Assembly: GCA_964361595.1 (NCBI GenBank)
Contig: CAYIAX010000004.1
Coordinates: 615 to 64,614 of the forward strand
Reading direction: 5' to 3'
From: an uncultured Candidatus Saccharibacteria bacterium
GTDB lineage: Bacteria; Patescibacteriota; Minisyncoccia; UBA6257; 2-01-FULL-56-20
Length of the DNA: 64,000 bases
Shown in pieces: positions 29,492 to 62,200 of this stretch (positions within the stretch are counted from its first letter, which is position 1; the number at the start of each line of letters is the position of its first letter). The translations under genes were made by a program, and so were the position numbers. The notes under the pieces were generated by a model. It did not search any database and had not been told where the DNA came from. It was given only the letters and a program-made list of their open reading frames with translations.

Positions 29492-29705
29492 TCTGGTGGA
29501 GCCCCACGGGCTTATCCAGCCTCCGTAGCCGTAGGCTACTACGGCGGAGGAGGCCGCCCGTGGCACCACTCCACACGCTTCGTCGGGCGGAACCCTCCGA
29601 AGCGTATCCTCCTTCGCTCTCCGAGCTACGGAGGATACCCTCATTCATTCCCGCCTTTACAGACGGGGCTTTCTCCGCTTCGCGGAGGAGGGTAGAATAA
29701 GAAAG
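29492..29705. ncRNA. GC-rich intergenic block of about five consecutive stem-loops; candidate structured RNA or terminator cluster
   Basis: ggtggagccccacgggc...gcccgtggcaccactccac; cgcttcg...cgaagcg; tatcctcc...ggaggata; ctccgcttcgcggag. No U-tract. Confidence 0.3.
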
Positions 29706-32707: not shown

Positions 32708-32736
32708 TTGACAATGCTTCCCGCCCGGTCTATAAT
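32708..32736 (+). promoter_or_regulatory. consensus sigma-70 promoter: TTGACA, 17-bp spacer, TATAAT, upstream of infA
   Basis: Exact consensus hexamers seen at 32708-32713 and 32731-32736. Confidence 0.55.
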
Positions 32737-32773: not shown

Positions 32774-32995
32774 ATGGAAGATAAAAACGATTCAGCCCCG
32801 CTTCGACAGGAAGGGGTGGTGGAAGAGGCTTTGCCCGGAGCCACATTTAGAGTGGAGCTTCAGCGGGGCGGCCGAGTCTTAGCGCATTTGGCTGGAAAGT
32901 TAAGGCTTTACCATATTCGGGTATTGCCCGGCGACCGCGTGCTTCTGGAGCTTTCTCCCGATGGGCAGCGAGGCAGGATCGTTAGGAGGTTATAG
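32774..32995 (+). CDS. infA: translation initiation factor IF-1
   Basis: [49 protein letters not shown]: S1-like OB fold of IF-1. Confidence 0.9.
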
Positions 32996-33059
32996 CTTTT
33001 AGAAATAAAAAGTTAAATCTACTAAAAGCTGAAAGCTCGAAGCTCAAAGCTAATAAAAA

Positions 33060-33173
33060 ATGAAGGTCAGAAGTTCCATTAAAAAGATTTGCCAGTCCTG
33101 CAAGGTGGTGAAACGCCAGGGACGGCTTTATGTTATCTGCAAGAATCCCAAGCATAAACAGCGGCAGGGCTAA
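33060..33173 (+). CDS. rpmJ: 50S ribosomal protein L36
   Basis: [37 protein letters not shown] (37 aa; zinc ribbon C..C...C..H). Below the ORF-track length cutoff, so found by hand. Confidence 0.85.
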
Positions 33174-33258
33174 CTAGCTTTTAGCTTTTACCTGCCGGCA
33201 GGCAGGGCTTTGAGCTTATAGTCACTAAAACCTAACAGCTAAAACCTCAAACCTAATT

Positions 33259-33642
33259 ATGCGATTACTCGGTATCAACATTCCCGACAATAAAGCGATC
33301 GAAGTTTCGCTTACTTATATTTATGGAATCGGCCGCGCGCAGAGCCGGCGCGCTTTGGCCGCAGCAAAGGTAGGTTTTGAAAAACGGACAAAAGATTTGA
33401 ATGCTGAAGAGGTCAATAAATTGAAAACGTGGATAGAAAAAAATTGCCACATCGAAGGCGATTTGCGCCAACAGATCCGCCGCAACATCCAGCGGCTGAA
33501 GGAGCTCCAAACCTATCGCGGCAGCCGCCATGCGCGCCGCCTGCCGGTCCGTGGCCAGCGCACACGCACCAATTCCCGCACTGTTCGGGGCAATGTCCGC
33601 AAGACCGCAGGCAGCGGCAAGCGCAAGGTGGAGTTGAAGTAA
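33259..33642 (+). CDS. rpsM: 30S ribosomal protein S13
   Basis: MRLLGINIPDNKAIEVSLTYIYGIGRA... Confidence 0.95.
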   Translation: MRLLGINIPDNKAIEVSLTYIYGIGRAQSRRALAAAKVGFEKRTKDLNAEEVNKLKTWIEKNCHIEGDLRQQIRRNIQRLKELQTYRGSRHARRLPVRGQRTRTNSRTVRGNVRKTAGSGKRKVELK

Positions 33643-33767
33643 TCCCTCACCCTTTAACGATTTCCAACATGACTAAATTCAGTTTAAAAATTTCGTTCTC
33701 TAATCAAGGCAACATGAAAGAAATTGCAGTTTTTAAGGTCGCGAAGCAGATCGCTAAAGGGTGAGGG
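33643..33767 (+). repeat. TIR-flanked ~125-bp intergenic element, ribosomal-protein type, copy 1; contains 16-codon leader uORF 33714..33764 and ends ...agggTGAgggATG at the rpsK start
   Basis: TIRs tccctcaccctttaacgat / atcgctaaagggtgaggga. uORF MKEIAVFKVAKQIAKG with its stop TGA 3 nt before the rpsK ATG. Confidence 0.85.
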
Positions 33768-34220
33768 ATGGGCAAGAAAAAAATCGCACAACAAACCGCC
33801 GAAGAGGCGCTGAAGGAAAAAAACGAGCAGGACATTGCGGTGGCCAAGGCTTCGGTGGTCAAGAAAGCCAAAAGCGTTGATTCCGGCCGCGTTTATGTTA
33901 ATGCTTCATATAATAATACGGTGATTACCGTGACTGATCTGCAGGGCAATGTAATAACCTGGGCTTCGGCGGGATCAATCGGTTTCTCGGGACCCAAAAA
34001 GGCTACCCCATTCGCGGCTTCTAAGATCGTGGCCGTGATCGCGGAGAAACTCAAGAATTTGGGAGTGATGAATTTGGAGATCCGGGCTAGGGGCATCGGC
34101 GGCGGCAGGGATTCGTCTATCCGTTCCTTTGCCAACCAGGGTTTCAATATCACCTCCTTGAAAGATGTAACCCCGGTACCGCATAATGGTCCTCGGCCGC
34201 GTAAAGTCAGGCGCGTATAA
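33768..34220 (+). CDS. rpsK: 30S ribosomal protein S11
   Basis: VYVNASYNNTVITVTDLQGNVITWASAGSIGFSGPKKATPFAA... Confidence 0.95.
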   Translation: MGKKKIAQQTAEEALKEKNEQDIAVAKASVVKKAKSVDSGRVYVNASYNNTVITVTDLQGNVITWASAGSIGFSGPKKATPFAASKIVAVIAEKLKNLGVMNLEIRARGIGGGRDSSIRSFANQGFNITSLKDVTPVPHNGPRPRKVRRV

Positions 34221-34345
34221 TCCCTCACCCTTTAGCGATTTCTAACATGACTCAATTCAGTTTAAAAATTTTGATCACTATAAAAGGCAACATGAAAGAA
34301 ATTGCAGTTTTTAAGGTCGCGAAGCAGATCGCTAAAGGGTGAGGG
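34221..34345 (+). repeat. TIR element, ribosomal-protein type, copy 2 (uORF 34292..34342)
   Basis: Near-identical to copy 1, with the same TIRs and uORF MKEIAVFKVAKQIAKG. Confidence 0.85.
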
Positions 34346-34960
34346 ATGAGATATCCTAAAGAAAAAAAAGAACGCTCGTTGGGCGAGCGGCTACAGCTCA
34401 AAGGGGAGCGCTGCCGGTCACCCAAATGCGCCATGGTGCGGAAGCCGTATCGGCCCGGCATGCATGGACACAAGCGGCAGCGAAAGATGCTGTCTGATTT
34501 CGGCCGCCAGATCAAAGAAAAGCAGAAATTCAAGTGGAGCTATGGGATTGACGAGCGGAACCTGCGCCATATCTTCGAACGCGCCGAACGGAAATCAGGT
34601 TCAGTCGCTTCGCAATTTTTAAAACTTTTGGAATTGCGTTTGGATAACGTAATCTTTCGTTTAGGTTTTGCCGCGTCGCGGTCGATGGCGCGCCAGCTCG
34701 TGAACCACGGGCATGTTATGGTTAACGGACGGCGGGTCAAATCTCCCGGTTTCGAGCTTAAGCTTGGAGATATAATCTCGGTTCGTCCGTCTTCGGTTAC
34801 AAAGTCGGTTTTCAAGAATTTAAAAGAGGAACTTTCGAAGTATACGCCCCCGGCATGGCTTAGCATTGATGCCGACAAGTTTGAAGGCAAAATTGTTTCC
34901 GCTCCCGATGAAAATATGCCTTTTGAAGTAAATTTATTGGTCGAATCATTTAGCAAATAA
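34346..34960 (+). CDS. rpsD: 30S ribosomal protein S4
   Basis: Zn-ribbon N-terminus (CRSPKCAMVRKPYRPGMHG) and the S4 domain (LELRLDNVIFRLGFAASRSMARQLVNHGHVMVNGRRV). Confidence 0.95.
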   Translation: MRYPKEKKERSLGERLQLKGERCRSPKCAMVRKPYRPGMHGHKRQRKMLSDFGRQIKEKQKFKWSYGIDERNLRHIFERAERKSGSVASQFLKLLELRLDNVIFRLGFAASRSMARQLVNHGHVMVNGRRVKSPGFELKLGDIISVRPSSVTKSVFKNLKEELSKYTPPAWLSIDADKFEGKIVSAPDENMPFEVNLLVESFSK

Positions 34961-34975
34961 ACATTTCGCAACACG

Positions 34976-35728
34976 ATGGAATACGCACACTTGAGTTCTA
35001 CGGTAGGCATTAAAACTGTTTCGGAAGAGGCCAAGCATGGTGTCTTTGACATTGAGGGCTTATATGCCGGTTATGGCCTTACAATTGGAAATGCGCTCCG
35101 CCGCGCCCTTTTGTCTTCGCTGCCCGGCGCCGCAGTAACCTATATCAAGATCAAAAATGCGTCGCACGAATTTTCAACCTTGCCGGGCGTCAAAGAGGAT
35201 CTGGTTCAGTTGACGCTCAACTTTAAAAAACTGCGTTTTCGCATGCATACGGACGAGCCGCAAATTCTACTTCTCGAATCTAAAGGCGAAGGCGTAGTCA
35301 AGGCTGGTAATATCGCTCCCAACTCCGAGGTGGAGATCGTAAATCCGGATGAAGTAATCGCCACGCTCACGACTAAAGATTCGGAGCTCAATATTGAGAT
35401 TACCGTCGAGCGCGGTTTGGGTTACTCCGCCGTGGAAGCGCGGAAAGCGGAAAAACTGGCCATCGGCCTTATTGGTATAGATGCCTTCTTTTCGCCCGTG
35501 ACTAAAGTGAACTATGCGATCGAGAATATGCGCGTGGGTGAACGCACCGACTACAATCGTCTGCGCTTTGAGATTGAAACGGACGGGACAGTGAGCCCAT
35601 CTGCGGCCCTCCACAAGACTTCGAATATCCTGAAGGACCACTTCGACAAGATTTTTGGCGTCGAGGTGAAGGAATTCGAGCTCGAAAAAACGGAGCCGGC
35701 CAAAAAACGTACGAGGAAAAAAGCATAG
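34976..35728 (+). CDS. rpoA: DNA-directed RNA polymerase alpha subunit, N-terminal domain only (250 aa, no alpha-CTD)
   Basis: GYGLTIGNALRRALLSSLPGAAVT..., dimerisation/assembly domain. Ends EPAKKRTRKKA with no CTD-like sequence. Confidence 0.9.
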   Translation: MEYAHLSSTVGIKTVSEEAKHGVFDIEGLYAGYGLTIGNALRRALLSSLPGAAVTYIKIKNASHEFSTLPGVKEDLVQLTLNFKKLRFRMHTDEPQILLLESKGEGVVKAGNIAPNSEVEIVNPDEVIATLTTKDSELNIEITVERGLGYSAVEARKAEKLAIGLIGIDAFFSPVTKVNYAIENMRVGERTDYNRLRFEIETDGTVSPSAALHKTSNILKDHFDKIFGVEVKEFELEKTEPAKKRTRKKA

Positions 35729-35857
35729 AAAATCCCTCACCCTTTAGCGATTTCCAACATGACTAAAACCAGTTTAAAAATTTTGATAACTATAAAAGGC
35801 AACATGAAAAATCATGGAGTATTTAAGGTCGCGAAGCAGATCGCTAAAGGGTGAGGG
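35729..35857 (+). repeat. TIR element, ribosomal-protein type, copy 3 (uORF 35804..35854, MKNHGVFKVAKQIAKG)
   Basis: Same TIRs; diverged interior. Confidence 0.85.
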
Positions 35858-36211
35858 ATGCGGCATTTAAAGAAAGGAAAAAAGTTTCACAGGTTGAAGG
35901 GAGAACGGCGTTCTTTTTTGCGCAACTTGGCGAATGATTTGCTTCGTAGCGGCAAAATCGAAACTACGGAAACCCGCGCCAAAGCCATCCGGCCTTTAGT
36001 TGAGCGCATGGTCACCATCGCCAAGCGGCAGGATTTGGCTGCGCGCCGCCTGCTCCTTGCTCGTTTGCACAATGAGCGGATTGTCCATAAGCTTTACGAT
36101 GAAATCGCTCCGCGTTATCAAGGCCGCCCGGGCGGATATCTGCGGATCACGAAGTTGGGCCGCAGCAAGAAGCGCGACGGCAGCCGGCTGGCCACCATAG
36201 AATTTGTTTAA
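35858..36211 (+). CDS. rplQ: 50S ribosomal protein L17
   Basis: MRHLKKGKKFHRLKGERRSFLRNLANDLL... Confidence 0.95.
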   Translation: MRHLKKGKKFHRLKGERRSFLRNLANDLLRSGKIETTETRAKAIRPLVERMVTIAKRQDLAARRLLLARLHNERIVHKLYDEIAPRYQGRPGGYLRITKLGRSKKRDGSRLATIEFV

Positions 36212-36336
36212 TCCCTCACCCTTTAGCGATTTCTAACATGACTCAATTCAGTTTAAAAATTTCATTCTCAAAGCAAGACAACATGAAAAATCATCGAGTT
36301 TTTAAGGTCGCGAAGCAGATCGCTAAAGGGTGAGGG
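36212..36336 (+). repeat. TIR element, ribosomal-protein type, copy 4 (uORF 36283..36333, MKNHRVFKVAKQIAKG)
   Basis: Same TIRs, ends at the rplM ATG. Confidence 0.85.
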
Positions 36337-36684
36337 ATGGATTACCACTTGGATGCTAAAAATAAGCACTTGGGGCGCTTGGCGTCGGAAATCGCCATGA
36401 TTCTCCAGGGCAAGCGGAATGCAAGCTACGACCCTGCTCGTTTGAGCGGTGATCGCGTGTTCGTAAAAAATTATCGCGGCGTGGTTGTGACCGGCCGCAA
36501 GGCGGAGCAAAAAACCTATTATCGCCACACCGGCTACATGGGACATTTGAAGGAAGCCAAATACAAAGAAGTATTTGCGAAGGACCCCAAGCGCGTCCTG
36601 CGCGAAGCAGTGCGCCGGATGCTGCCGAAAAATTTTTTAAACCAGCGCCGTCTAAACCAACTTATTTTCATCGATGGCGAATAA
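36337..36684 (+). CDS. rplM: 50S ribosomal protein L13
   Basis: LGRLASEIAMILQGKRNASYDP...VFVKNY. Confidence 0.95.
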   Translation: MDYHLDAKNKHLGRLASEIAMILQGKRNASYDPARLSGDRVFVKNYRGVVVTGRKAEQKTYYRHTGYMGHLKEAKYKEVFAKDPKRVLREAVRRMLPKNFLNQRRLNQLIFIDGE

Positions 36685-40060: not shown

Positions 40061-40125
40061 GCCGGGAATTGCCGCCCACGGCCGTGGGCGAGCCTCGCCC
40101 CGTCCGAGCGGGGCGGGAACCGCTT
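40061..40125 (-). terminator. GC-rich hairpins downstream of tRNA-Pro (gcccacggccgtgggc; cgccccgtccgagcggggcg), including a 17-nt duplicate of the tRNA 3' end
   Basis: Perfect palindromes. A related hairpin, gagcctcgccccgttgcgacggggcgggagcc, recurs at 50608-50640. Confidence 0.4.
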
Positions 40126-47957: not shown

Positions 47958-48896
47958 TTACTTCAACGACTCAGCTCCGGCGGTGATTTCGATGATTTCT
48001 TTCGTGATCGCGGCCTGGCGAGCTTTGTTATAAACGAGCGTGAGCTCCGACCTAAGCTCATTCGCGTTATCGGATGCGTTTTTCATGGCCACGCGGCGGG
48101 CGGCGTGCTCGGACGCGTTCGCCTCGAGCACCAAATGGTAAATTTCCATGAGTGTGAGGTGGGCGGCGAGTTCGTCGAGGATCTCCTGCGGCGAAGGTTC
48201 GATCAGATAATCTTCGTTGCCTGTTTGCGCCTCCGGTTGGTCAAGTTGCTTGAAATTGGCGAAGCGTCCGGTTTTAGGAACAAGTTCGCGGAGAGTATTT
48301 AAGAGCGCTTCGGCGCTCGCGGGCAAGAGCTCGCGAAAAACCATGTCTTGCCGGAGCGCGCTTTCAAAGCGCATTGAGAAGACGAGGACGCGGTCCCAGT
48401 CGCCCCGGAGAAATCCTTCCGTCAAAAATTTGGCCAGAGGTTCGATTTCCGCGATTGTGGTGTAATCGCCGAAGCGGGTAAATGCGCGTTTAAAGTTCGG
48501 CGTCCGGCGTTCGAGATAGGCGGCGGCTTTTTGGCCGACGGCGATGTACGCGTAAGCGGGATCGGCAAAATCTATTTTCTCCGCCCGGATGAATTTTTCC
48601 ACTGCGCGGATTACAGCGCTGTTGAACGAACCGGCCAGCCCCTTGTCTGAAGTGACGACCACAATCGCCGTGGTTTTAACGCCGCGTTTTTCGAGAAGCT
48701 TAGGCAGGTGCGCGGTTTCGAGACGCGTAAGCCGCGCGAGAAAATCCAGCGCCGAAAAAGCGTAAGGCCGCGAAGCCAAAGCGATCTCCTGGCTCTTTCG
48801 CATCTTGGTTGCCGCCACGAGCTCCATGGCTCGCGTGATCTGGTTTATGTTTGTCACCCCTTTGAGGCGGCGTTTAAGGTTTTGCAAAGACTCCAT
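47958..48896 (-). CDS. atpG: F0F1 ATP synthase subunit gamma
   Basis: MESLQNLKRRLKGVTNINQITRAMELVAATKMRK..., ending ...ITKEIIEITAGAESL. Confidence 0.9.
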   Translation of the reverse strand: MESLQNLKRRLKGVTNINQITRAMELVAATKMRKSQEIALASRPYAFSALDFLARLTRLETAHLPKLLEKRGVKTTAIVVVTSDKGLAGSFNSAVIRAVEKFIRAEKIDFADPAYAYIAVGQKAAAYLERRTPNFKRAFTRFGDYTTIAEIEPLAKFLTEGFLRGDWDRVLVFSMRFESALRQDMVFRELLPASAEALLNTLRELVPKTGRFANFKQLDQPEAQTGNEDYLIEPSPQEILDELAAHLTLMEIYHLVLEANASEHAARRVAMKNASDNANELRSELTLVYNKARQAAITKEIIEITAGAESLK

Positions 48897-49020
48897 CCCT
48901 CACCCTTAGAGAATTTGCGCAGAGCGCAAACTCTCGATATGTTTTGAGCTAAAGACCTTTATCTCCAAATAAGTTCTTGTGAAAATGTGTTTCATGAAAT
49001 GATTCTCTAAGGGTGAGGGA
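48897..49020 (-). repeat. TIR element, atp type, copy 1, upstream of atpG (29-codon uORF 48906..48995; ...ctcTAAgggTGAgggATG)
   Basis: TIRs tccctcacccttagagaat / attctctaagggtgaggga. uORF MKHIFTRTYLEIKVFSSKHIESLRSAQIL. Confidence 0.85.
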
Positions 49021-50550
49021 TTAAGAGTTGGCGATCAGGAATTTCTCGATCGCGGCTTTGAGCTTCGCTTCAGTCTCCTCGATCAAGTTTCCGGTTTCGC
49101 GAATCGGCTTCAGGATGTCTTCGTCGTGCAGTTTGGCGATGTACTCAAGGAAAAGCCCTTCCATTTTTTTCGCTTGCTCGATTTCAAAACGGTCGAAATG
49201 GCCGTTCAAGACCGCGTAGAAAATCGCCACCTGCTTTTCGCAAGCCAAGGGCGCCTGGTCGTCCTGCTTTAAAATTTCGGTGATGATTTGTCCCTGGCGG
49301 ATGCGTTTTTTCGTGGCTGCGTCCACGTCCGAGGCGAATTGTACGAAAGCCTGGAGTTCGCGGAACTGCGCCAAGGCGTAGCGCAAACCGCCGGCGACTT
49401 TCTTCATCGCTTTGGTTTGAGCTGCGGAGCCCACGCGCGAGACCGAGAGTCCAACGTTTACGGCCGGCCGGATGCCTTGGTAGAAAAGATCGCTTTCCAA
49501 ATAAATCTGGCCGTCGGTAATCGAAATTATGTTCGTCGGAATGTAAGCGGTAATGTCGCCGAGTTGCGTTTCGACAAGGGGGAGTGCCGTCAAGGATCCC
49601 CCGCCTTTCTCTTTTGATAGTTTGGCGGCGCGCTCTAGCAAGCGGGAGTGGAGGTAAAAAATATCGCCGGGGTAAGCTTCGCGGCCGGGCGGGCGGCGGA
49701 GCAAGAGCGAGATCTGCCGGTAAGCCCAGGCATGTTTTGAAAGGTCGTCGTAAACAACAAGCGCGTCTTCGCCGCGGTCGCGGAAATATTCGCCTACGGC
49801 GCAGCCGGCAAAGGGTGCCAGATACCACAAGGCGGCGGGCGACGAAGCCGAAGCGGAAACTACAATAGTATATTTCAAGGCGTCATATTGCTTGAGGGTT
49901 TCCACAATGCGGGCAACTTTCGCTTCTTTCTGTCCTACGGCTACATATATACAGATAGGCGTTTTGCGGCCGGTATCAGAGCCCTGGTTAATTATCGTAT
50001 CGAGCGCCACGGCGGTTTTGCCGGTCTGGCGATCGCCAATGATAAGTTCGCGCTGGCCGCGGCCGATCGGGATCATTGAATCTATGCTCTTTAATCCGGT
50101 ATGGAGCGGCGTGTTCACACCTTCGCGTTCCAAAACGGATGGCGCGCGATTTTCCAAAGGGTAGCGTGTTTGTTCTTGGTTTTTAAAAATTGGGCCCTTG
50201 CCGTCCAGGGGATTGCCCAGGGGATCGATCACGCGGCCAACCATTTCTTTGCCGACCTGGAGCGAAAGCACTTGGCCGGTGCCCTTAACGGTATCTCCGC
50301 TTTTTATTTCCAAATAATCATCGAGCACCAAAGCGCCGATTGTTTCTTCTTCGAGGTTTAAAGCCACGGCGCGGCGCGGACCCGCATGAGTTTCGATCGT
50401 GAGGAGCTCCTGGCTCGCCGCTTGCTTCAAACCGGTCAATTTTACAATGCCGTCGCCGACTTCAATTATGCGGCCCACGGCTTCCCAGTCGGTCTTATCC
50501 TTATAATCGGCAATTTCACGCTTAAGTTTTTCGATGATTTCGTAAGACAT
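49021..50550 (-). CDS. atpA: F0F1 ATP synthase subunit alpha
   Basis: P-loop [18 protein letters not shown], and ...[23 protein letters not shown]... Confidence 0.95.
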
Positions 50551-50639
50551 TGGTTAGAATTTAGAACCTAGCCGCCTTGGCGCCCGCTCCGACTCGGAGA
50601 CGAGGCGAGAGCCTCGCCCCGTTGCGACGGGGCGGGAGC

Positions 50640-51038
50640 CTAGAATTTAGAATTGGTTGCGGAGAATAATTTTTGCAGTTTTCGTTTAAGCGACATGTCG
50701 AGTTCGCGTTCGTCATTTACGGTGATCCTTACTCCGGCCACGAGTTCAGGAAGAATTTGTTCTTCGACTTTATCTTTGGGTTTAAGAAGCGTATGAAAAA
50801 GTTTGCGCGCGGGCTGGGGTAAGGGGCGGGCGGAAGCAACCTCAATTTTATTTATGCCCTTGCGGGCGTAAAACATTTTTTCGGTCGCCGCGGCGATTTT
50901 AGGCAAAAGGTATGCGTCGCCGTTTTGCCTCGCTAAAGATATGGCGCGGCGGATGTACTCTTCCTGCTTCACCTGGCTCTCTGTGCTTGCGAGCACCGCG
51001 CTTAAAGCTTCGGCATAAACCCTGGGAGAAAACTTCAT
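50640..51038 (-). CDS. atpH: F0F1 ATP synthase subunit delta (OSCP-like, short)
   Basis: Position between atpF and atpA; helical N-domain (YAEALSAVL...). Confidence 0.7.
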   Translation of the reverse strand: MKFSPRVYAEALSAVLASTESQVKQEEYIRRAISLARQNGDAYLLPKIAAATEKMFYARKGINKIEVASARPLPQPARKLFHTLLKPKDKVEEQILPELVAGVRITVNDERELDMSLKRKLQKLFSATNSKF

Positions 51039-51162
51039 CCCTCACCCTTAGAGAATTTGCGCAGAGCGCAAGCCCTCAATCTGTTTTGTCCTGGGGACCT
51101 TTAGCTCCGAATAAGTTCTTATTAAAATGTTTTTCATAAAGTGATTCTCTAAGGGTGAGGGA
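51039..51162 (-). repeat. TIR element, atp type, copy 2, upstream of atpH (uORF 51048..51137)
   Basis: Near-identical to copy 3. uORF MKNILIRTYSELKVPRTKQIEGLRSAQIL. Confidence 0.85.
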
Positions 51163-51663
51163 TTATTTTCCGGCAATTTCCTCTACTGCTTTCTTGATCA
51201 AGGCCTCATCCACGGCCGTGGGAGCAAGTTCGACGGTGCGAATCAGGGCTGCTTTGACCAGGGCCGCCGCTTCTTGTTTCATCGCCCGGCGGGCGGTTTC
51301 CGCCTTACCGGCAATAATCTGATCCGTCTGGGCCAGCATCTCGGTTTCTTTGGTTTTGGCGGCTGCGAGGAGTTCGCCCTCGAGCCGCTTGGCCTTGGCT
51401 TCGGTGGCTTTAATTACAAGCATGGCCTTTTCATCAGCTTCTTTCATTTTGGCTCGCTCGAGCTCCTGGATTTCGCCTAACCGGACTTCGGCCTCTTTGG
51501 CTTTGGTGAGGCCCGCCTCGATTTTCTCCCGCCGGTCCTTGAGGATTTTTAAAATCGGCTTGTAAGCGAAAACGCGCAAGACAACTAGAAGCAGCAAGAA
51601 GTTCACCGCTTGGCTTAAAAGCAATTTCCAGTCGAGGCCTAATTGGTTGATGAGTTCAGACAT
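51163..51663 (-). CDS. atpF: F0F1 ATP synthase subunit b
   Basis: N-terminal TM helix (LLLSQAVNFLLLLVVLRVFAY) plus a long charged helix. Confidence 0.8.
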   Translation of the reverse strand: MSELINQLGLDWKLLLSQAVNFLLLLVVLRVFAYKPILKILKDRREKIEAGLTKAKEAEVRLGEIQELERAKMKEADEKAMLVIKATEAKAKRLEGELLAAAKTKETEMLAQTDQIIAGKAETARRAMKQEAAALVKAALIRTVELAPTAVDEALIKKAVEEIAGK

Positions 51664-51745: not shown

Positions 51746-51973
51746 TTAAACGAACTTCAAAATTAACGCGACGACCAGCGCATAAATGGCGATCGCTTCG
51801 GCGAAGGCGATCGCGAGAATCATGGCCGTCTGCACCTTGGGGGCCGCTTCGGGGTTGCGGCCGATCGCATCCGTACCGCGCGAGCCGATCATGCCGATCG
51901 CGATGGCTGGCGCAATCGCACCGACAGCAATCGTGATCATCGGCGCCCACAAACGTACTGTTTCTAGTTCCAT
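51746..51973 (-). CDS. atpE: F0F1 ATP synthase subunit c
   Basis: Two-TM hairpin with a conserved E in helix 2 (AIAFAEAIAIYALVVALIL) and the GRNPE loop. Confidence 0.85.
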   Translation of the reverse strand: MELETVRLWAPMITIAVGAIAPAIAIGMIGSRGTDAIGRNPEAAPKVQTAMILAIAFAEAIAIYALVVALILKFV

Positions 51974-52087
51974 GTAGTTAAAATTCTAAGTTTGCAATTT
52001 TGCAATTCTCAAAAAATTAAGTTGAGTTTTGAAAATTGAAAATTGGGAATTGGAAATTGTGTTTGCGACCTTTTAATGACCAGAATT

Positions 52088-52825
52088 CTATTCATGTGCA
52101 ATGGCGGTGGCAACGAAGACGAGGGACAGCATTGCGAAGACGAAAGCTTGGATGAAACCCACGAAAGTTTCCAAGAAGAGAAACGGAAGCGGAATGAAGT
52201 AAGGAGTGAGGAAAGCGATGATCGTGAGCAAGATTTCGCCGGCAAAGATGTTGCCGAAGAGCCGGAACGAAAACGAGATCAGTTTAGCAACTTCGGAGAT
52301 TAATTCAAGTATGCCGATGAAAAAATCGATCGGTCCCCTGAAATTAAAAAATTTACCCGCGTGCTTTACAAAACCGATGACGGCAATACCCAGAATATTC
52401 ACGGTGACGACGGAAATGACGGCCAAGGCGAGCGTGAAATTGAGATCGCTGCCGGGCGAGCGCAAAAGCGGAACGCGCCCCTCCGCTGTTTCAAAAATGA
52501 CCGAGCCGATGCCGGGCAAAAGCCCAAACCAGTTCGCAGCGAGAATGAAAAGGAAAACGGTGCCCACAAAGGGCAGGTATTTTTCAGCTCGCTCACGGCT
52601 GCCAAGGATTCCTTCCATGAGCCCGAGCGCTCCCTCAATCGCAGTTTCAAAAGTATTTTGAATGTAGCCGGGGACGAGGACTAACCGCCGCCGGCCAATT
52701 GCGGCGAGCGCGGCTAGGATAACCATGACTAGAGTTGAAAGCAAAAGCGCGTTCGTGACGGGAAAGCCGCCGAGGCGGAAAAGTTCTTCGGCGCGGAGTG
52801 AAATATGTATGCCAGATGATTCCAT
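52088..52825 (-). CDS. atpB: F0F1 ATP synthase subunit a
   Basis: Polytopic; RLFGNIFAGE contains the essential Arg. Confidence 0.85.
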   Translation of the reverse strand: MESSGIHISLRAEELFRLGGFPVTNALLLSTLVMVILAALAAIGRRRLVLVPGYIQNTFETAIEGALGLMEGILGSRERAEKYLPFVGTVFLFILAANWFGLLPGIGSVIFETAEGRVPLLRSPGSDLNFTLALAVISVVTVNILGIAVIGFVKHAGKFFNFRGPIDFFIGILELISEVAKLISFSFRLFGNIFAGEILLTIIAFLTPYFIPLPFLFLETFVGFIQAFVFAMLSLVFVATAIAHE

Positions 52826-52949
52826 CCCTCACCCTTAGAGAATTTGCGCAGAGCGCAAGCCCTCAATCTGTTTTGTCCTGGGGACCTTTAGCTCCGAATA
52901 AGTTCTTATTAAAATGTTTTTCATAAAGTGATTCTCTAAGGGTGAGGGA
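52826..52949 (-). repeat. TIR element, atp type, copy 3, upstream of atpB (uORF 52835..52924)
   Basis: Same TIRs and uORF as copy 2. Confidence 0.85.
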
Positions 52950-53321
52950 TTCCCGCCGGACGCCGAAAGCGGCGGCAGGAGAGTAATTATAGGAAAAAGC
53001 GGCTGGAAAAGCAAAACCGATTACAATCTAAAAAAGATAAGGCCGGCGCGGGAGAAAAGCTTGCGTCGGCCTCGGATGTTCGGGTCGTATAGACCCGAGT
53101 GGTCCCCAAAAGGAGGGGCAGCAGCGCAGCAAAAGCTAGCAACCGGGGTTATTTAGAAAATACTGGAACTGGCTTAATTATAGCGCTTGCATTTCGTTTA
53201 TGGAAGGGGAATGTGGATAACCCCAAAGGGCTTTACCGGGATTCAAGCATAAGGAAGCCCCGACGTGCATGGTTGCACCGGGGCTTTTAGCGGAAAATGT
53301 TTGGTGGGAAATACTTCTTAT

Positions 53322-56220: not shown

Positions 56221-57072
56221 ATGCAGGATAAATCTATTCCAGATTCCAGATTCCAGATTCTAGATTCTCGCCGGGGTTTCACCATCCTTGAGCTTTTGAT
56301 TTTCACCGCGATTTTTACCGGCGCGGCGATGGCGTTTATCGCGATCCTGGTGGCGGTTACGCGCGTCCACGTCCGCCAGAACGCGATGGCCGAGGTAACG
56401 CAGCAAAGCCAATTCCTGCTGACCACGATTCAGCGCTACGTCGAACAGTCGAGCGCCATCGAAATGGCCAACGATTCGACGACGAGCACCTTAAAGCTTC
56501 GCATGGCTTCGACGACCGGCGATCCCGCCTATATTTATTTGTCGGGAACGACCGTCTACCTGAAACAAACGGAGAGTGGCACGGCCGAGCCTTTGACTTC
56601 GGACAAGGTGCAGATAACAAGTTTGAATTTCGCCAAGCGGTCTAATCCCGGCGGCCACGATTCGGTGAGCGTGGCCTTTCTGATGAACTATAACGCGACG
56701 AACATTCAGCACCGCTTCACGAATGAAATTGATACTGCGATCGGCCGGGTCTCCGCGGCCACTTTTGATTCGAACATTTTGCCTTCGACCGGGAACACTT
56801 ACCGCCTGGGCACGGCGGCGGCGGATTGGCAGGCGATCAACAACACGATTTATTTCAGCGGCTCGAACGTGGGCGTGGGGGTTGCCTCGCCAGGCCAGAC
56901 GCTCGAGGTAAACGGCGGCGTGCGCTTGAATACGACGACCGGGAAGCCGACTTGCGACTCTACCCAGCGCGGCACGCTGTGGGTAACGCAGTCCGCGAGC
57001 GGCACCAAGGATTATGTCCAGGCCTGTATTCGCAGTTCTACGAGCACGTTTTACTGGGCAACTTTAGATTAG
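56221..57072 (+). CDS. type IV pilin-like protein (class III signal peptide) with a long C-terminal domain
   Basis: Prepilin motif RRGFTILELLIFTAIFTGAAMAFIAILV (G|FT(L/I)xE). C-terminal SGSNVGVGVASPGQTLEVNGG echoes the giant-protein repeat. Confidence 0.7.
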   Translation: MQDKSIPDSRFQILDSRRGFTILELLIFTAIFTGAAMAFIAILVAVTRVHVRQNAMAEVTQQSQFLLTTIQRYVEQSSAIEMANDSTTSTLKLRMASTTGDPAYIYLSGTTVYLKQTESGTAEPLTSDKVQITSLNFAKRSNPGGHDSVSVAFLMNYNATNIQHRFTNEIDTAIGRVSAATFDSNILPSTGNTYRLGTAAADWQAINNTIYFSGSNVGVGVASPGQTLEVNGGVRLNTTTGKPTCDSTQRGTLWVTQSASGTKDYVQACIRSSTSTFYWATLD

Positions 57073-57209
57073 AACCTAGAAGCTAGAATTCAGAATCTAG
57101 AATCGCTTTTAAAACCTAGAAGTTAGAATTTAGAACCCAGAAGAAACATGATCGAAACTTTTTAATCATAAATTCTAAATTCTAGGTTCTAGATTCTAGA
57201 TTCTGCACA
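57073..57209. repeat. TAGAAC satellite arranged as an imperfect large palindrome
   Basis: ttagaacctagaagctagaattcagaatctagaatc ... cataaattctaaattctaggttctagattctagattctg. Confidence 0.6.
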
Positions 57210-57548
57210 ATGACCAAATCTTTCAAGGAGCTTCTGGTTTGGCAAAAAGCCAAGGAATTAGCCGTTGAAATTTATAAGCTGACGGAAGAATTTCCAAACT
57301 CTGAAATTTATGGTTTAAGCAGCCAGATGCGAAGAGCTGTTATTTCGATTTCTTCTAATATCGCGGAAAGCTACCAGCGTTTTCATAAAAAAGAAAAAGA
57401 CCAATTACTTGCAGTGGCTTACGGTTCGGGCGCGGAGCTTGAAAGCCAGATTGAAATAGCAAGGGAGTTGTTCCCTAGCTTAAAATATGAAAAAGCAGAT
57501 GCGATTCTTTTGGAAGTTATGAAAATGCTTAACAATTTCCTGCATTAA
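57210..57548 (+). CDS. four-helix-bundle protein (TIGR02436 / '23S rRNA intervening-sequence protein' family; Avd-like fold)
   Basis: KELLVWQKAKELAVEIYKLTEEFPNSEIYGLSSQMRRAVISISSNIAESYQRF...AYGSGAELESQIEIAREL. Confidence 0.8.
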   Translation: MTKSFKELLVWQKAKELAVEIYKLTEEFPNSEIYGLSSQMRRAVISISSNIAESYQRFHKKEKDQLLAVAYGSGAELESQIEIARELFPSLKYEKADAILLEVMKMLNNFLH

Positions 57549-57677
57549 GTCAATTTCCAGCTTCCAGCTTCCAGCTTCCAGCTTCTAAGTTTGCTTGTGG
57601 ATAAACTATTTACCGGCTTGTTATATACTATTATTGAGTATTCTAGGTTCTAAATTCTGAATTCTAGATTCTAAACA
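57549..57677. repeat. simple repeats: (ccagctt)x4 followed by an inverted TAGAAC-type array
   Basis: ccagcttccagcttccagcttccagcttc ... ttctaggttctaaattctgaattctagattctaaac. Confidence 0.55.
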
Positions 57678-58205
57678 ATGTCCAACAAACAAATCATCTA
57701 TGTTGTGATCGCCGTCGCCATCGCGGGTTCCTTGGTTGCCTATTTTGTTTCGCGCAAAGGGAGTAGCGCGCCGGAATCCGAACTTAGCCAGCAAGGAGGC
57801 CAAGGCTTGGTTACGCGGGAAGTGGCGCCGGAGAATATCGCAGTTCCGGAAAAAGATTCCGGTAACGTTCCGGAAAATGTCGCCAAGCCCGAGCAGGTAT
57901 CGCCGGCGGCGGCTGGAGTAGAGGAAGATATGCGGACATTTTCGATTACCGTGTCGGGAAATAAATTTTCGCCGGACACAGTGATTGCTCGTGTCGGCGA
58001 CATCATTAAATTGAATTTCACCGCCGTCGACAAAAATTATGAATTTACCCAGCCGGATTATGGCTTTAAGGCCCAGCTCCCGAAAGGACAAACGGTTTCC
58101 GTAACCTTCGGCGTGAACGGCGAAGGCAAGTTCCTTTTCTACTGCGGCAGCTGCGGCGGGCCGTCACAGGGTCCGGTGGGATATATTATTGTGGTGAAAA
58201 GATAA
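57678..58205 (+). CDS. membrane-anchored cupredoxin-like domain protein
   Basis: N-terminal TM helix, then GDIIKLNFTAVDKNYEFTQPDYGFKAQLPKGQTVSVTF...GKFLFYCGSCGG, which resembles the Cupredoxin_1 pattern. Confidence 0.5.
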   Translation: MSNKQIIYVVIAVAIAGSLVAYFVSRKGSSAPESELSQQGGQGLVTREVAPENIAVPEKDSGNVPENVAKPEQVSPAAAGVEEDMRTFSITVSGNKFSPDTVIARVGDIIKLNFTAVDKNYEFTQPDYGFKAQLPKGQTVSVTFGVNGEGKFLFYCGSCGGPSQGPVGYIIVVKR

Positions 58206-58326
58206 GAACCTAGAATTTAGAACCTGGAATCTGGAAAATACGAATTATGCTATTACTAAAAAAGTCGATCGGTTTTTAAAGTTTTAAATTCTAGATTCTG
58301 AATTCTAGGTTCTAAATTCTAATCTC
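58206..58326. repeat. TAGAAC satellite, forward and inverted arrays
   Basis: gaacctagaatttagaacctggaatctgg ... aaattctagattctgaattctaggttctaaattctaatc. Confidence 0.55.
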
Positions 58327-58773
58327 ATGTTAAATAAAAAACTTTTAGGAATTTTAGTCGCGGTCATCGTTGTTCTCGTTCTGGTCGGCGTCTGGGTGGG
58401 GGTTAAACTTACCGGAAACGGCGCTGACGAGCCCTCGGAATATTCGGCGGTTTACCTTTCAAGCGGCGATATTTATTTCGGCAAACTCTCCTGGTTCCCG
58501 TGGCCCAAAATTAAAAATGTTTGGTACATCCAGCGGGGAGTGGACGCGCAGAATCAGCCCCAGCTGGGACTTGCGCCTTTCACTTCCGTTTTCTGGGGTC
58601 CGGTTGACGAAGTTTCCTTAAATCCCAAAGAAATTCTTTTTTGGACGCGCTTGCGCGAAAGCAGCCAGCTTGTGCAGGCCTTCAGGAACCCGCAAGCGGT
58701 CCAGCCGCCGCCCGCGAATCAGCAGGTTTCACCAGGGCAGCAGCAAAATCCCACAAGCGGAAACCCTCAATAG
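58327..58773 (+). CDS. hypothetical membrane-anchored protein, Q/P-rich C-terminus
   Basis: TM helix LLGILVAVIVVLVLVGVWVGV; C-terminal low complexity (PQAVQPPPANQQVSPGQQQNPTSGNPQ). Confidence 0.5.
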   Translation: MLNKKLLGILVAVIVVLVLVGVWVGVKLTGNGADEPSEYSAVYLSSGDIYFGKLSWFPWPKIKNVWYIQRGVDAQNQPQLGLAPFTSVFWGPVDEVSLNPKEILFWTRLRESSQLVQAFRNPQAVQPPPANQQVSPGQQQNPTSGNPQ

Positions 58774-59291: not shown

Positions 59292-62200
59292 ATGAACCAG
59301 CAAGCTCGGACATACCGGAGAAAATTAGCCTGGAGTTTAATCAGCTTAATTTCGCTCGCTATTCTACCACCTACCACCTACCACCTACTACCTACCGCAA
59401 ACGCCTTCACCGGCCCGTCCTCGGGCGGCGGCGTGGGCACGGGCGCGATCGGCGTGAATTCGGCCAATAACTTGAGCGTCGGCACCTCGACGCCGCTTGC
59501 CGAGACCAAGTTTTTGATCGTGGCTTCCAGCTCGGCCGACAGCGCGAACTTTGCGGTTAAAGTCAGCTACCCCTTGAGTACGCCGATCTTGTGGGTGCGG
59601 AACGACGGCAAGGTCATGATCGGCACCTCCACGCCCATTTCCGCCGCGGCTCTGACGGTGCAGGGCGACATTTATGCAACCGGCAACTTGTATGGCACTC
59701 TTTCCGGCGCAGTTTTAGCTGCAAACGTTACGTCCGACGTCTTCGGCCGCCTGCAGGGCAACGGGAATTTCGCTTTTCCGGCCTCGCTAGGTGTCGGCAC
59801 TTCTTCGCAGGCGGGACTGCCGCAGGAACTCTCGGTTTATGGCGATGCGTATGTAACGGGCAGCGTCGGCATCGGGACGACGGGGCCGGGGGCAAAGTTA
59901 CAAGTTCTTGGAGGGAATGTGCTTGTTGGTGGCTATGGTACTGGAACGGAATATGGCATTCTGTTGTCGCCAAGCGATGCTGGTAACTACCACTGGATAG
60001 CTCAAATTGCTGGTACTAAGTTGCAGATTGGCTCAGGAAACGTTATTGGTACATCTCCTCAAGTTACTATTGACAACTCCGGCAACGTTGGCATCGGGAC
60101 GACGGGACCGAGTTCAAAGCTGGATGTTAAGGGAAGCGCAGGAGCATTGACCGATTACGGCATCGCCACGATTGAAGAACCAACTCAAAATAGAGGTATT
60201 TCTTTTGGATTCGATACTACAAATGACTGGACATGGGTTTACAGCCGAGATGTTGGAGTGGAAAGTAAACCAATAAGATTTAATGATTTATTTTTTGTTG
60301 GCAAAGGAAACGGCAACGTCGGCATCGGGACGACGAATCCGAGTGATTTATTAACGGTGGTGACAAGTGCCCAGGGGACTGGCGGTATGTCAATTCAACA
60401 AGCTACCAATGAGGGACTATGGTTCAGGCCGGATAATTCTGCTGGCGCGTCCAATCCTCTCGTTCAGGCCGGGGACAAGAGTATTATATTTAGTGCTGGG
60501 TCTATCGAAACAGGTAATCTCGTCATTGCGCCTTGGTCGGCTAGCAGTTATGGAGTACGTATAACGAATACCGGCAACGTCGGCATCGGGACGACGAATC
60601 CGAACGCTATGCTGGATGTTGCGGGTACGATTAACGGGCGGAACTACGCCGTTCCAGATACGGGAGCAACGTCGCAATGGGCAAAGCTAGGCACATTTAC
60701 TGCAGGGCAGGCTGGCCATACAATCCGTGTCGTCGCATACATCCACAACGGTTTTAATGCTGTAAACTCTCAAGATAGCGTTTATACCATAACTTTCAAG
60801 ACCTCTAACGGTTCAAGCGTAGACGGCAACGGCTTTGCAGGAAATGGAAGCTGGTACGCAATCGGTTTCAATTCTCAAATCCCATCTGGCAATATCAAGT
60901 GGAAGGCGAATGCCGCCGGGGTGAGCGCGACCTCATATGATCTCTATATTCTCTTGCCCATTTTTACCACTAATAGCCACTACGCTGTCTCCGTGGTTTC
61001 AACCGCAAGCTGGACAAATGTCGGATCAATTGGTCAGACTGACCCAGGCATTGCGAGCGCCTCGGTACTTATACCGACACCAGAGTTCAATGTGCCTTAC
61101 GGCAGCGTCGGCATCGGGACGACGGGGCCTGCCACTAAACTCGAAGTAGATGGGGATACGACACTTCTAGTTCCGTCTACTGTTGCCACTGCGACGACGG
61201 ATTATGCATTAAGGCTTTTCGACAATAGGACGAGAACGGCCAATAACGCTCAAGCGATTATATTTCAAAATGCTTCAACAGAGCATTTCGCGCGGATTGA
61301 AGTTACTGATTTGGGTGGTGGCGGTAACGCGGCGGCACGTATGGATTTCAAGGTAAACAGTGCCGCAGAGGGGACTAATCCAACCTCGCGCCTGACAATT
61401 CTAAATAGCGGCAACGTCGGCATCGGGACGACCAACCCCACGAGCACCCTCACTGTCGTCGGCGAAATCAAAACCACCTCCGGCGGCGTCCGCTTCCCCG
61501 ACGCCACCCTCCAGACCACGGCCTACACCGGCACTTCCACCCAGGTGGTCTCGGCCGCGAACGTCTCGGCCGACGTCTTCGGCCGCCTGCAGGGCAACGG
61601 GAATTTCGCTTTTCCGGCCTCGCTCGGCGTCGCCACCTCGACGCAGGTCGGCTTGCCCCAGGAACTTTCGGTATATGGCGATATCTATGCCTCTGGCAAC
61701 GTCGGCATCGGGACGACGAGTCCAAACGCGGGATTGCAAATTAGCGGCGGCAACGTTCATGTGCAGGGTTCTTTCAGCAACAGTAATCAGTTAAGAATTA
61801 CCGGAACGGGAGCCGCGGGTACGGGCAACGATGCGATTCTCCGTTTTGATACGTCCAGCAATAGCCGAGTGATATATGTGGATGAAAGTGATTCAAACAA
61901 AATGAAGTTTACTGGCGGTGGAGCAACGGATTTGGTCACAATAGATAACAGCGGCAATGTCGGCATCGGGACGACGGGGCCAAACCGAAGGCTTACGATA
62001 GGAAATCCTGGAGCGGTAAGTACCAATACACAACTGCTCTACCTTAAACAGCCCAATGATTATGGTTACTCATTCAATATCGATGATTCTGTTACTGGTC
62101 GTATGTATCTCCAAGGAGTCAATGCTGGTGTTGAATCAAACATTATGACTCTTGACAGAACAACCGGCAACGTCGGCATCGGGACGACGGGGCCGGTGAC

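Follow-up and report, generated by a model that had tools for sequence, protein, structure and literature searches.

Inverted-repeat elements that bridge stop and start codons in Parcubacteria operons, and their possible role in translational coupling

Seven copies of the element in one window

The ribosomal-protein and ATP synthase operons on contig CAYIAX010000004.1 (assembly GCA_964361595.1), of which we analysed a stretch of 64,000 nucleotides (the window in what follows), contain a short inverted-repeat element that fills the spaces between genes. Four near-identical plus-strand copies lie where the original prediction, a model's reading of the same DNA, had placed them: at the rpsM (S13)/rpsK (S11) junction (copy 1, 33642-33769), the rpsK/rpsD (S4) junction (copy 2, 34220-34347), the rpoA/rplQ (L17) junction (copy 3, 35732-35859) and the rplQ/rplM (L13) junction (copy 4, 36211-36338). 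Their terminal inverted repeats are real but 20 nt long instead of the proposed 19, and consist of ATCCCTCACCCTTTAGCGAT and its reverse complement (33642-33661 and 33750-33769 in copy 1, 34220-34239 and 34328-34347 in copy 2, 35732-35751 and 35840-35859 in copy 3, and 36211-36230 and 36319-36338 in copy 4). The stop codon's last A and the AT of the ATG both fall within these 20 nt; in copy 1, base 1 is the A of a TAA stop and the final two bases are the AT of the ATG. The proposed placement at the junction is therefore right, but the element does not start after the stop codon, since its first A is the third base of TAA; copy 3 is preceded by a TAG plus AAA, so that here the stop codon is not shared with the element. 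Allowing up to three mismatches, we found eight arm matches, against none in 100 shuffles. Folded with their ends paired, copies 1-4 reach minimum free energies (MFE) of -43 to -49 kcal/mol with z-scores of -5 to -7, and the arms are complementary in the predicted fold, as had been expected. These four copies are mosaics, with three variable segments that each occur in two forms and are present in four different combinations, which points to exchange between copies.

The element is not limited to these four sites. Three further copies lie on the minus strand in the atp operon, at the atpA (alpha)/atpG (gamma) junction (copy 5, 48895-49021), at the atpF (b)/atpH (delta) junction (copy 6, 51037-51163) and immediately 5' of atpB (a subunit), the first recognised atp gene (copy 7, 52824-52950); no upstream ORF (open reading frame) adjoining copy 7 was identified. 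These copies are 97% identical to each other and form a second subfamily, which serves minus-strand genes, has the outer 13 nt of the arms in common with the first and carries AGAGA as its inner box. The neighbouring genes for S13, S11, S4, L17, L13 and the ATP synthase subunits were confirmed by Pfam. A leader ORF that starts with ATG and crosses the 3' arm is present in all seven window copies. In subfamily 1 it has 31 codons and lies on the plus strand at 33669-33764 in copy 1 (peptide MTKFSLKISFSNQGNMKEIAVFKVAKQIAKG; the TGA is 3 nt 5' of the rpsK ATG), 34247-34342 in copy 2, 35759-35854 in copy 3 and 36238-36333 in copy 4. The 29-codon ORFs of subfamily 2 lie on the minus strand at 48906-48995 in copy 5 (with the TAA 9 nt before the atpG ATG), 51048-51137 in copy 6 and 52835-52924 in copy 7. 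The 16-codon upstream ORF that had been described exists, but it is the second half of the 31-codon in-frame ORF and not the conserved unit, the leader ORFs of the whole family having a median length of 27 codons (interquartile range 24-30). Only one of six window leader peptides has ever been called as a gene; the exact copy 1 peptide has a single gene annotation in ENA data.

Upstream of infA, at 32708-32736, we found a perfect match to a promoter-like pattern (TTGACA, 17 nt, TATAAT). Inside the window elements we found no terminator-like site and a single weak promoter-like match, in one copy only. Given the infA site and the lack of terminator-like sites in the elements, the window copies most probably lie within polycistronic mRNAs. 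On the minus strand at 53350-53322, about 370 nt upstream of copy 7, there is a near-perfect promoter-like site (TTGACA, 17 nt, TATGAT, TG preceding the second box), which implies either that the leader is long or that a small transcript is made separately. As no upstream ORF was identified next to it, the stem of copy 7 could be opened by translation through its own ORF only.

Position, stem and reading frame across the element family

A scan of metagenomes for the outer 13 nt of both arms (ATCCCTCACCCTT, 95-125 nt, AAGGGTGAGGGAT) returned at least 117 loci. Together with the window these provide 119 non-redundant elements in 68 clusters by interior sequence, and all family counts below rest on this dataset; because the elements are related to each other, element counts overstate independence, which cluster counts correct in part. 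The elements are 122-154 nt long, have perfect or near-perfect 20-nt inverted ends and contain no transposase gene. RpoA puts the window organism in Parcubacteria (Paceibacterota); the protein is matched at 100% by a 1,492-bp ENA contig of Hainich groundwater origin (L006, ERZ1292626), and its next closest homologues are 79-81% identical. That contig, which represents the same genome in another sample, starts and ends inside copies 2 and 3, indicating that the repeat fragments short-read assemblies of this operon. The exact 20-mer was also found in a Patescibacteria genome and in three contigs of a metagenome-assembled genome (MAG) labelled Gammaproteobacteria, where the interiors are different and the TAA|element|ATG layout is the same. 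Named flanking proteins come from Liptonbacteria, Parcubacteria, Patescibacteria and Jorgensenbacteria (the last on a 635-kb contig); every host with a name belongs to Parcubacteria/Patescibacteria, and the element is widespread in Parcubacteria, within the candidate phyla radiation. No copy was found in viral contigs, and a single-arm match in a Bacteriovorax MAG (L007) was rejected as chance, about one 20-mer match being expected there by our estimate. Searching the whole window against Rfam at gathering scores matched no family, and at E values up to 1 the only match over the region was a chance one to a plant microRNA hairpin. We also found no published description in the literature, including for the end sequences and in reviews of MITEs (miniature transposable elements with inverted repeats). 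The family therefore appears to be undescribed, as the original prediction had supposed.

The position of the element relative to codons is nearly constant. In 110 of the 119 elements (92%), the AT|G end is present in exactly one orientation and the ATG opens a long ORF; all ten downstream ORFs that we looked up are gene calls in public data. An upstream ORF could be recognised for 96 elements; in 74 of these the last base of the stop codon belongs to the element as well (69 TAA, 5 TGA), and in 17 more the stop codon is 0-12 nt away. Flanking genes include core operon pairs such as rpsM|rpsK (S13|S11, in at least four genomes), rplP|rpmC (L16|L29), rplF|rplR (L6|L18) and rplQ|rplM (L17|L13). 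Since pheS|pheT, secD|secF, nrdD|nrdG, groES|groEL and ATP synthase junctions are occupied as well, the special link to ribosomal-protein genes suggested by the first four copies does not hold.

The original prediction also had the element donate a Shine-Dalgarno (SD) sequence to the downstream gene. We examined 612 other long-ORF starts in these contigs (window plus all loci), taking the first ATG as the start. From -13 to -1 of these starts G is depleted and A makes up about 40%; G amounts to 13-18% at -13 to -4, and SD-like 4-mers show no excess (14% vs. 13% at random). The short orthologous gaps of relatives (4-13 nt) likewise contain no SD-like sequence. As these genomes show no SD signal at gene starts, and as a G-rich 3' arm is just contrary to the usual surroundings of a start here, SD donation is unlikely to be what the element does, and we rejected it as the main role.

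Stem statistics were calculated for 101 distinct end pairs. Positions 1-13 are preset by the search pattern. Positions 14-18, by contrast, vary in sequence, with four to five pair types each, yet are 93-98% paired. Positions 19 and 20 are conserved without being imposed by the search (A:T in all pairs and T:A in 91/101, respectively), and from position 21 onward pairing drops to background. Paired through 14-20 and at background from 21, the stem is exactly 20 bp long. Compensatory changes extend to the outer stem in near-cognate copies, for example CACCTTT/AAAGGTG and CACTCTT/AAGAGTG. The median energy of the arm duplex is -35.3 kcal/mol, and the AT of the downstream ATG forms stem pairs 2 and 1. 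In 80 of 110 elements the complete stem is present in the predicted minimum-energy fold, enclosing an interior of 80-110 nt that is largely unpaired. Uncompensated natural variants in the 5' arm, each of which breaks one stem pair, occur in L129 (element position 10) and in L131 and L132 (position 13).

Interiors are oriented as well. In an all-against-all comparison, 51 strong pairs of homologous interiors have the same sense relative to the genes, against four palindromic artefacts, and AAGGTC is present in the sense direction in 29 elements and antisense in none. This comparison ruled out insertion in both orientations, which a shared GCGAAGC motif had led us to suspect. In 64/110 elements an ATG-initiated ORF of at least 15 codons is in frame with the downstream ATG, compared to 10 and 6 in the other sense frames and 13, 4 and 1 in the antisense frames; shuffled interiors have on average 12.6 such ORFs and at most 22. 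Counted by cluster, the bias remains (40/68 sense vs. 8/68 antisense), so that the recurrence of the leader ORF through the 3' arm, on one strand and in one frame, is confirmed. As a feature of the element it is true in part, because about 40% of elements lack it and half of those carry the decoy described below. Between the end of the leader ORF and the gene ATG there are 3 nt in 47 elements and 9 nt in 16. Leader ORF starts lie in surroundings rich in A and poor in G, 67% of them having A at -3, and resemble ordinary starts in these genomes. Apart from C-terminal residues that are imposed by the stem, the peptides differ among clusters, and they matched no family in Pfam or NCBIfam, which is in line with the original prediction.

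Elements without the ORF are very AT-rich, with a G-rich patch 30-60 nt from the 5' end. We define a decoy as the pairing of at least 9 of the 13 outer 5'-arm bases with an internal patch when the 3' arm is excluded from the fold. By this definition a decoy is present in 23/46 elements without the ORF vs. 4/64 with it, while shuffled interiors pair about 4 of the 13 nt. An ORF of at least 15 codons or a decoy is found in 87/110 elements (91 when ORFs of 8-14 codons are included), and in 13 of the 17 that have no nearby upstream ORF. That ORF and decoy are distributed in a complementary way is the best argument for selection acting on the release of the 3' arm. Base-pair probabilities did not discriminate between loop ATG and gene ATG in accessibility.

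Related lineages differ in whether and how a junction is filled. At the junctions occupied in the window, relatives have gaps of 4-13 nt (L001, L003) or unrelated hairpins made up of heptamer-like repeats (L004). Copies within one genome are near-identical, as in the L059 pair, which matches at 186 bits over ~94 nt of interior, and one and the same junction has other subfamilies in other genomes. The clearest case is an ABC-transporter junction in lineages that are 88-93% identical in the downstream gene. Here L097 and L129-L132 have one subfamily and L133 another, and the junction is empty in L134 and L135 (TAA ATACTAAAT ATG) and in L051 (TAA AT ATG). The sequence of L133 is that of L051 plus a core, CCCTC...GAGGG, set between both ATs. 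The pair fits an AT duplication or a footprint, though AT also belongs to the element ends, so that L133 cannot prove a duplication. A further empty site reads TAATG, and removing the core from most copies also leaves TAATG; about ten copies are flanked by ATG or ATGA at either end, as would result from the splitting of an earlier ATGA overlap. These empty orthologous sites, which the original prediction had asked for, and the different subfamilies at the same junction in related lineages indicate that the element turns over.

The label MITE-like, used in the original prediction, fits only in part. Short length, terminal inverted repeats, dispersed copies (seven in the 64-kb window and several on other contigs) and presence or absence between relatives are all as in MITEs. 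Of the classical hallmarks, a clear target duplication, insertion in either orientation and a transposase were not found: no definition of the core yields a uniform duplication across copies, orientation is fixed, and there were no unpaired ends in the 918 kb of loci that the scan covered, as opposed to whole genomes. Covariation of the arms also weighs against this label, because a transposase that binds each end separately does not require it.

Possible translational coupling and its alternatives

The element is a structured, oriented repeat that is tolerated or retained almost exclusively where its stem connects a stop to a start codon on same-strand operon genes. We see about an even chance that it is a spreading hairpin cassette, placed between cistrons, through which translation of the downstream gene is coupled or gated. 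Its two 20-nt ends would form, in the mRNA, a 20-bp stem of about -35 kcal/mol, with the last base of the stop and the first two bases of the ATG at its base, so that stop and start are juxtaposed and the start codon is closed. The hosts appear to initiate on open, A-rich and G-poor leaders without an SD sequence, and a start buried in such a stem would be unusable alone. It would come into use once ribosome traffic or refolding opens the stem, for which three routes can be envisaged. A ribosome finishing the upstream gene would cover the outer part of the 5' arm. In the ~60% of elements with a leader ORF, a ribosome could start at the ordinary-looking ATG in the loop, translate ~27 codons across the 3' arm, stop 3 or 9 nt before the gene ATG and restart there. 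In many of the rest, the G-rich internal decoy would pair with the 5' arm during transcription and leave the 3' arm free. As a net effect, the ~125-nt insert would be translationally transparent or act as a gate, and essential proteins such as S11, S4, L17, L13 and the ATP synthase subunits would still be made.

Several observations weigh against coupling. All functional steps, from transcription and folding in the cell to translation of the leader ORF, coupling itself and the mechanism of copying, are predicted from sequence. Coupling also leaves unexplained why the stem is 20 bp long and why its outer 13 bp and positions 19-20 are conserved between lineages; a conserved stem sequence of fixed length looks more like something recognised by a protein or nuclease. 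Mismatches in the variable stem positions (12 G:T vs. 18 A:C) show no preference for the sense RNA strand, so pairing could be maintained at the DNA level, for example by template-switch correction of quasi-palindromes. Nine of the 119 elements do not adjoin an ATG. Several of these (L120, L122, L125, L117, L022, L126) end in GGGAT|TGACA, followed by 17 nt and TAATAT or a similar box, such that the element supplies, with its final T, the first base of a -35-like hexamer, in constant orientation to the putative promoter; since these elements follow a gene and precede promoter-like boxes, downstream coupling does not apply to them. In 19/110 elements there is neither an ORF nor a clear decoy. 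Finally, kinship among the elements inflates the independence of our counts, and conservation of the outer 13 nt is a biased measure because the search pattern preset it.

The properties of the stem that coupling does not account for are those expected of a processing or stability element, in which RNase III, or some other factor specific for double strands, acts on the 20-bp RNA duplex. Cleavage would split the cistrons apart, with a protective half-stem staying on the upstream mRNA and the downstream start freed on a ~10-nt leader; ORF and decoy would be secondary features. An arm duplex of about -35 kcal/mol, uninterrupted over the required ~20 bp, sharply bounded and conserved in sequence on both sides of the 5-bp variable box, fits measurement by a protein better than it fits masking of a start codon. 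The location within polycistronic operons without a terminator-like site agrees with processing as well, and copies between a stop codon and a promoter allow only a 3'-end role at the RNA level. Neisseria Correia elements are reported to be bound by RNase III and to be cleaved or protected by it (PMC2649163). Processing does not explain an ATG adjoining the stem in 92% of elements, an ORF in one specific frame that ends 3 or 9 nt before it, or the complementary distribution of ORF and decoy. As a complete explanation we consider processing unlikely, at perhaps one chance in five; by virtue of the fixed stem length and sequence conservation, RNase III processing is nevertheless a serious rival or partner mechanism to coupling. 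An equally unlikely account needs no function at all: a purely selfish palindrome, mobile or gene-converting, would survive only in tiny spacers or TAATG overlaps where it does no harm, and its placement would reflect survivorship. The turnover data suit this account well, given the near-identical copies within genomes and different subfamilies at the same junction elsewhere, the independent fills and empty sites at one junction among lineages 88-93% identical, the relatives that function with gaps of 4-13 nt, the restoration of TAATG by core removal from most copies and the existence of natural variants that break stem pairs. Survivorship alone, however, predicts neither the fixed orientation to genes nor an ATG ORF in one frame in 40/68 clusters, nor a decoy precisely in copies without the ORF; nor does it predict that 92% of elements have no spacer left on their start side while such leftovers are tolerated next to the stop codon. 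Such strand- and frame-dependent features imply selection on the transcript, even if merely to stay harmless.

Two other accounts are improbable. If folded single-stranded or cruciform DNA were the substrate of a recombinase or HUH-type transposase, with the RNA features incidental, then covarying arms, mismatches without sense-RNA bias, conserved ends around a centre variable in sequence and length, and the lack of a consistent target duplication, as with HUH-type elements, would all be accounted for; the position right after stop codons also recalls integron attC sites. The ends, though, are unlike the attC core sites RYYYAAC/GTTRRRY and the GTAG motif of REP sequences, the flanks are conserved core operons in conserved order and not cassettes, and a strand-specific ORF and start-codon adjacency are left without explanation. 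We regard this as very improbable. Slightly less probable still is that the 23-33-residue ORFs encode functional peptides that the inverted repeats merely flank. Enrichment in one frame and strand, and a length that is kept (median 27 codons) despite strong sequence divergence, are consistent with small-protein genes, whereas the peptide sequences are not conserved between clusters beyond the residues set by the stem, match nothing in Pfam or NCBIfam and are missing from ~40% of elements.

In form, the closest known systems are Correia/NEMIS and other bacterial MITE-like repeats; in logic, they are leader-peptide and coupling hairpins. Like the present element, Correia/NEMIS of Neisseria, ERIC, RUP, BOX and the Rickettsia RPE are ~100-160 bp long with terminal inverted repeats. 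These repeats also share its many copies per genome, mostly intergenic and co-transcribed position, RNA with one long stem joining the 5' and 3' ends, and ends that can make promoter boxes with the flank. They are set apart by TA termini, by target duplications, by insertion in both orientations and by the lack of any fixed relation to codons; in-frame fusion to host genes has been noted for their ORFs. In contrast, the ends of our element are part of stop and start codons, its orientation is fixed, its arms covary and its internal ORF stops 3 or 9 nt short of the host ATG. That some MITE-like repeats carry ORFs has been described (PMC2229807, PMC2649163). A 2024 review of prokaryotic MITEs makes no mention of start codon, stop codon, ribosome binding or Shine.

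Coupling hairpins such as the ermC/cat leader peptides, atpH-atpA, rpmI-rplT, MS2 coat-replicase and synthetic translation-coupling cassettes are single, locus-specific structures that usually mask an SD sequence. The predicted logic is the same, with a start region closed in a stem and opened by a ribosome on an upstream ORF or leader peptide. Our element differs in being one sequence family at many unrelated junctions, in many genomes and in hosts without an SD signal, and nothing about it indicates regulated stalling. Integron attC sites and REP/REPIN resemble the element as imperfect palindromes just after stop codons, with conserved ends, a variable centre, structure kept more than sequence and no classical target duplication. 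The element ends ATCCCTCACCCTT and AAGGGTGAGGGAT do not conform to the attC core pattern RYYYAAC...GTTRRRY (an integrase was not searched for), and unlike attC cassettes the flanks are conserved ribosomal, ATP synthase, pheST and groESL operons. In contrast to both attC and REP, the element adjoins the ATG of the next gene and carries an ORF or decoy; REP/REPIN are paired 20-40-nt palindromes with a conserved 5' tetranucleotide and a RAYT transposase, which was not searched for here, whereas the element has a single 20-bp terminal stem. Bypass and shunt inserts are known from phage T4 gene 60, from Magnusiomyces mitochondria ('byps') and from cauliflower mosaic virus (CaMV), the CaMV shunt requiring a short ORF that ends at the foot of the stem. 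They too are stable hairpins that begin at a stop codon and are tolerated since the ribosome gets across. They concern one reading frame or a eukaryotic leader, while our element lies between two separate proteins and requires no hopping.

A more far-reaching reading, which we put forward tentatively and think somewhat doubtful, is that these are a new kind of horizontally spreading 'plug-in' cassette, which inserts or is copied into stop-start junctions of core operons with its own ribosome relay in the form of a leader ORF or decoy; by carrying this relay, an insert inside an essential operon would stay translationally transparent. A stronger version would make the conserved 13-bp outer stem the binding site of a putative single trans-acting factor. 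If true, operons for ribosomal proteins, ATP synthase, chaperonin and tRNA synthetases would be under common control of this factor throughout Parcubacteria. The chance that the element merits its own category is fair. Parcubacteria and their relatives make up a large uncultured share of bacterial diversity and have tiny, tightly packed genomes; to our knowledge, almost nothing is known about how they control gene expression. The element sits in the most essential operons with single-nucleotide precision at stop and start codons, and if it does couple or gate translation, it would constitute a lineage-wide layer of control in bacteria that apparently lack SD initiation. For the biology of mobile elements, it would be a natural repeat shaped for harmlessness at the level of translation. 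On the practical side, it is relevant to assembly breaks and possible miscalls of start codons, and may offer a compact, naturally tested design for synthetic translational-coupling cassettes.

Other features of the window and its relatives

Many other intergenic gaps in the window genome and in relatives are hairpins made of degenerate 7-nt repeats (AGAACCT/TTCTAGA or TAGGGNA/CCCTAAA) that start at or right after the stop codon and finish a few bases before the next ATG. In the window they occupy 57072-57210, 57548-57678, 58205-58327, 51950-52088 and 32995-33259; examples in relatives are 2166-2437 and 5161-5241 in L001, 2643-2742, 3205-3299 and 4760-4847 in L004, and about 5527-5675 in L021. 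The groES|groEL junction contains the element in L055 and a heptamer hairpin in one relative. It may be a feature of the lineage as a whole that hairpins span the distance from stop to start codon.

The rpoA gene between copies 2 and 3 (34976-35728) encodes a 250-residue RpoA with the N-terminal domains only (PF01000, PF01193). The best 120 RpoA homologues are all 238-270 residues long and have the identical two domains, which suggests that this clade lacks the alpha C-terminal domain. Two GC-rich intergenic stretches also stand out. The one at 29492-29705 is very strongly structured (MFE -109 kcal/mol for 220 nt) within an AT-rich genome; it has no Rfam match and could be an unknown RNA. The other consists of nested hairpins between atpH and atpA at 50551-50639 (MFE -45 kcal/mol for 95 nt) and has a 32-nt motif, GAGCCTCGCCCCG...CGGGGCGGGA, in common with a site at 40090-40121. 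At the end of the window, CGGCAACGTCGGCATCGGGACGACG is repeated 13-15 times within 59858-64000, always at a distance divisible by 3 (201-528 nt), which looks like a protein motif (GNVGIGTT-like) repeated within a very large repetitive gene.

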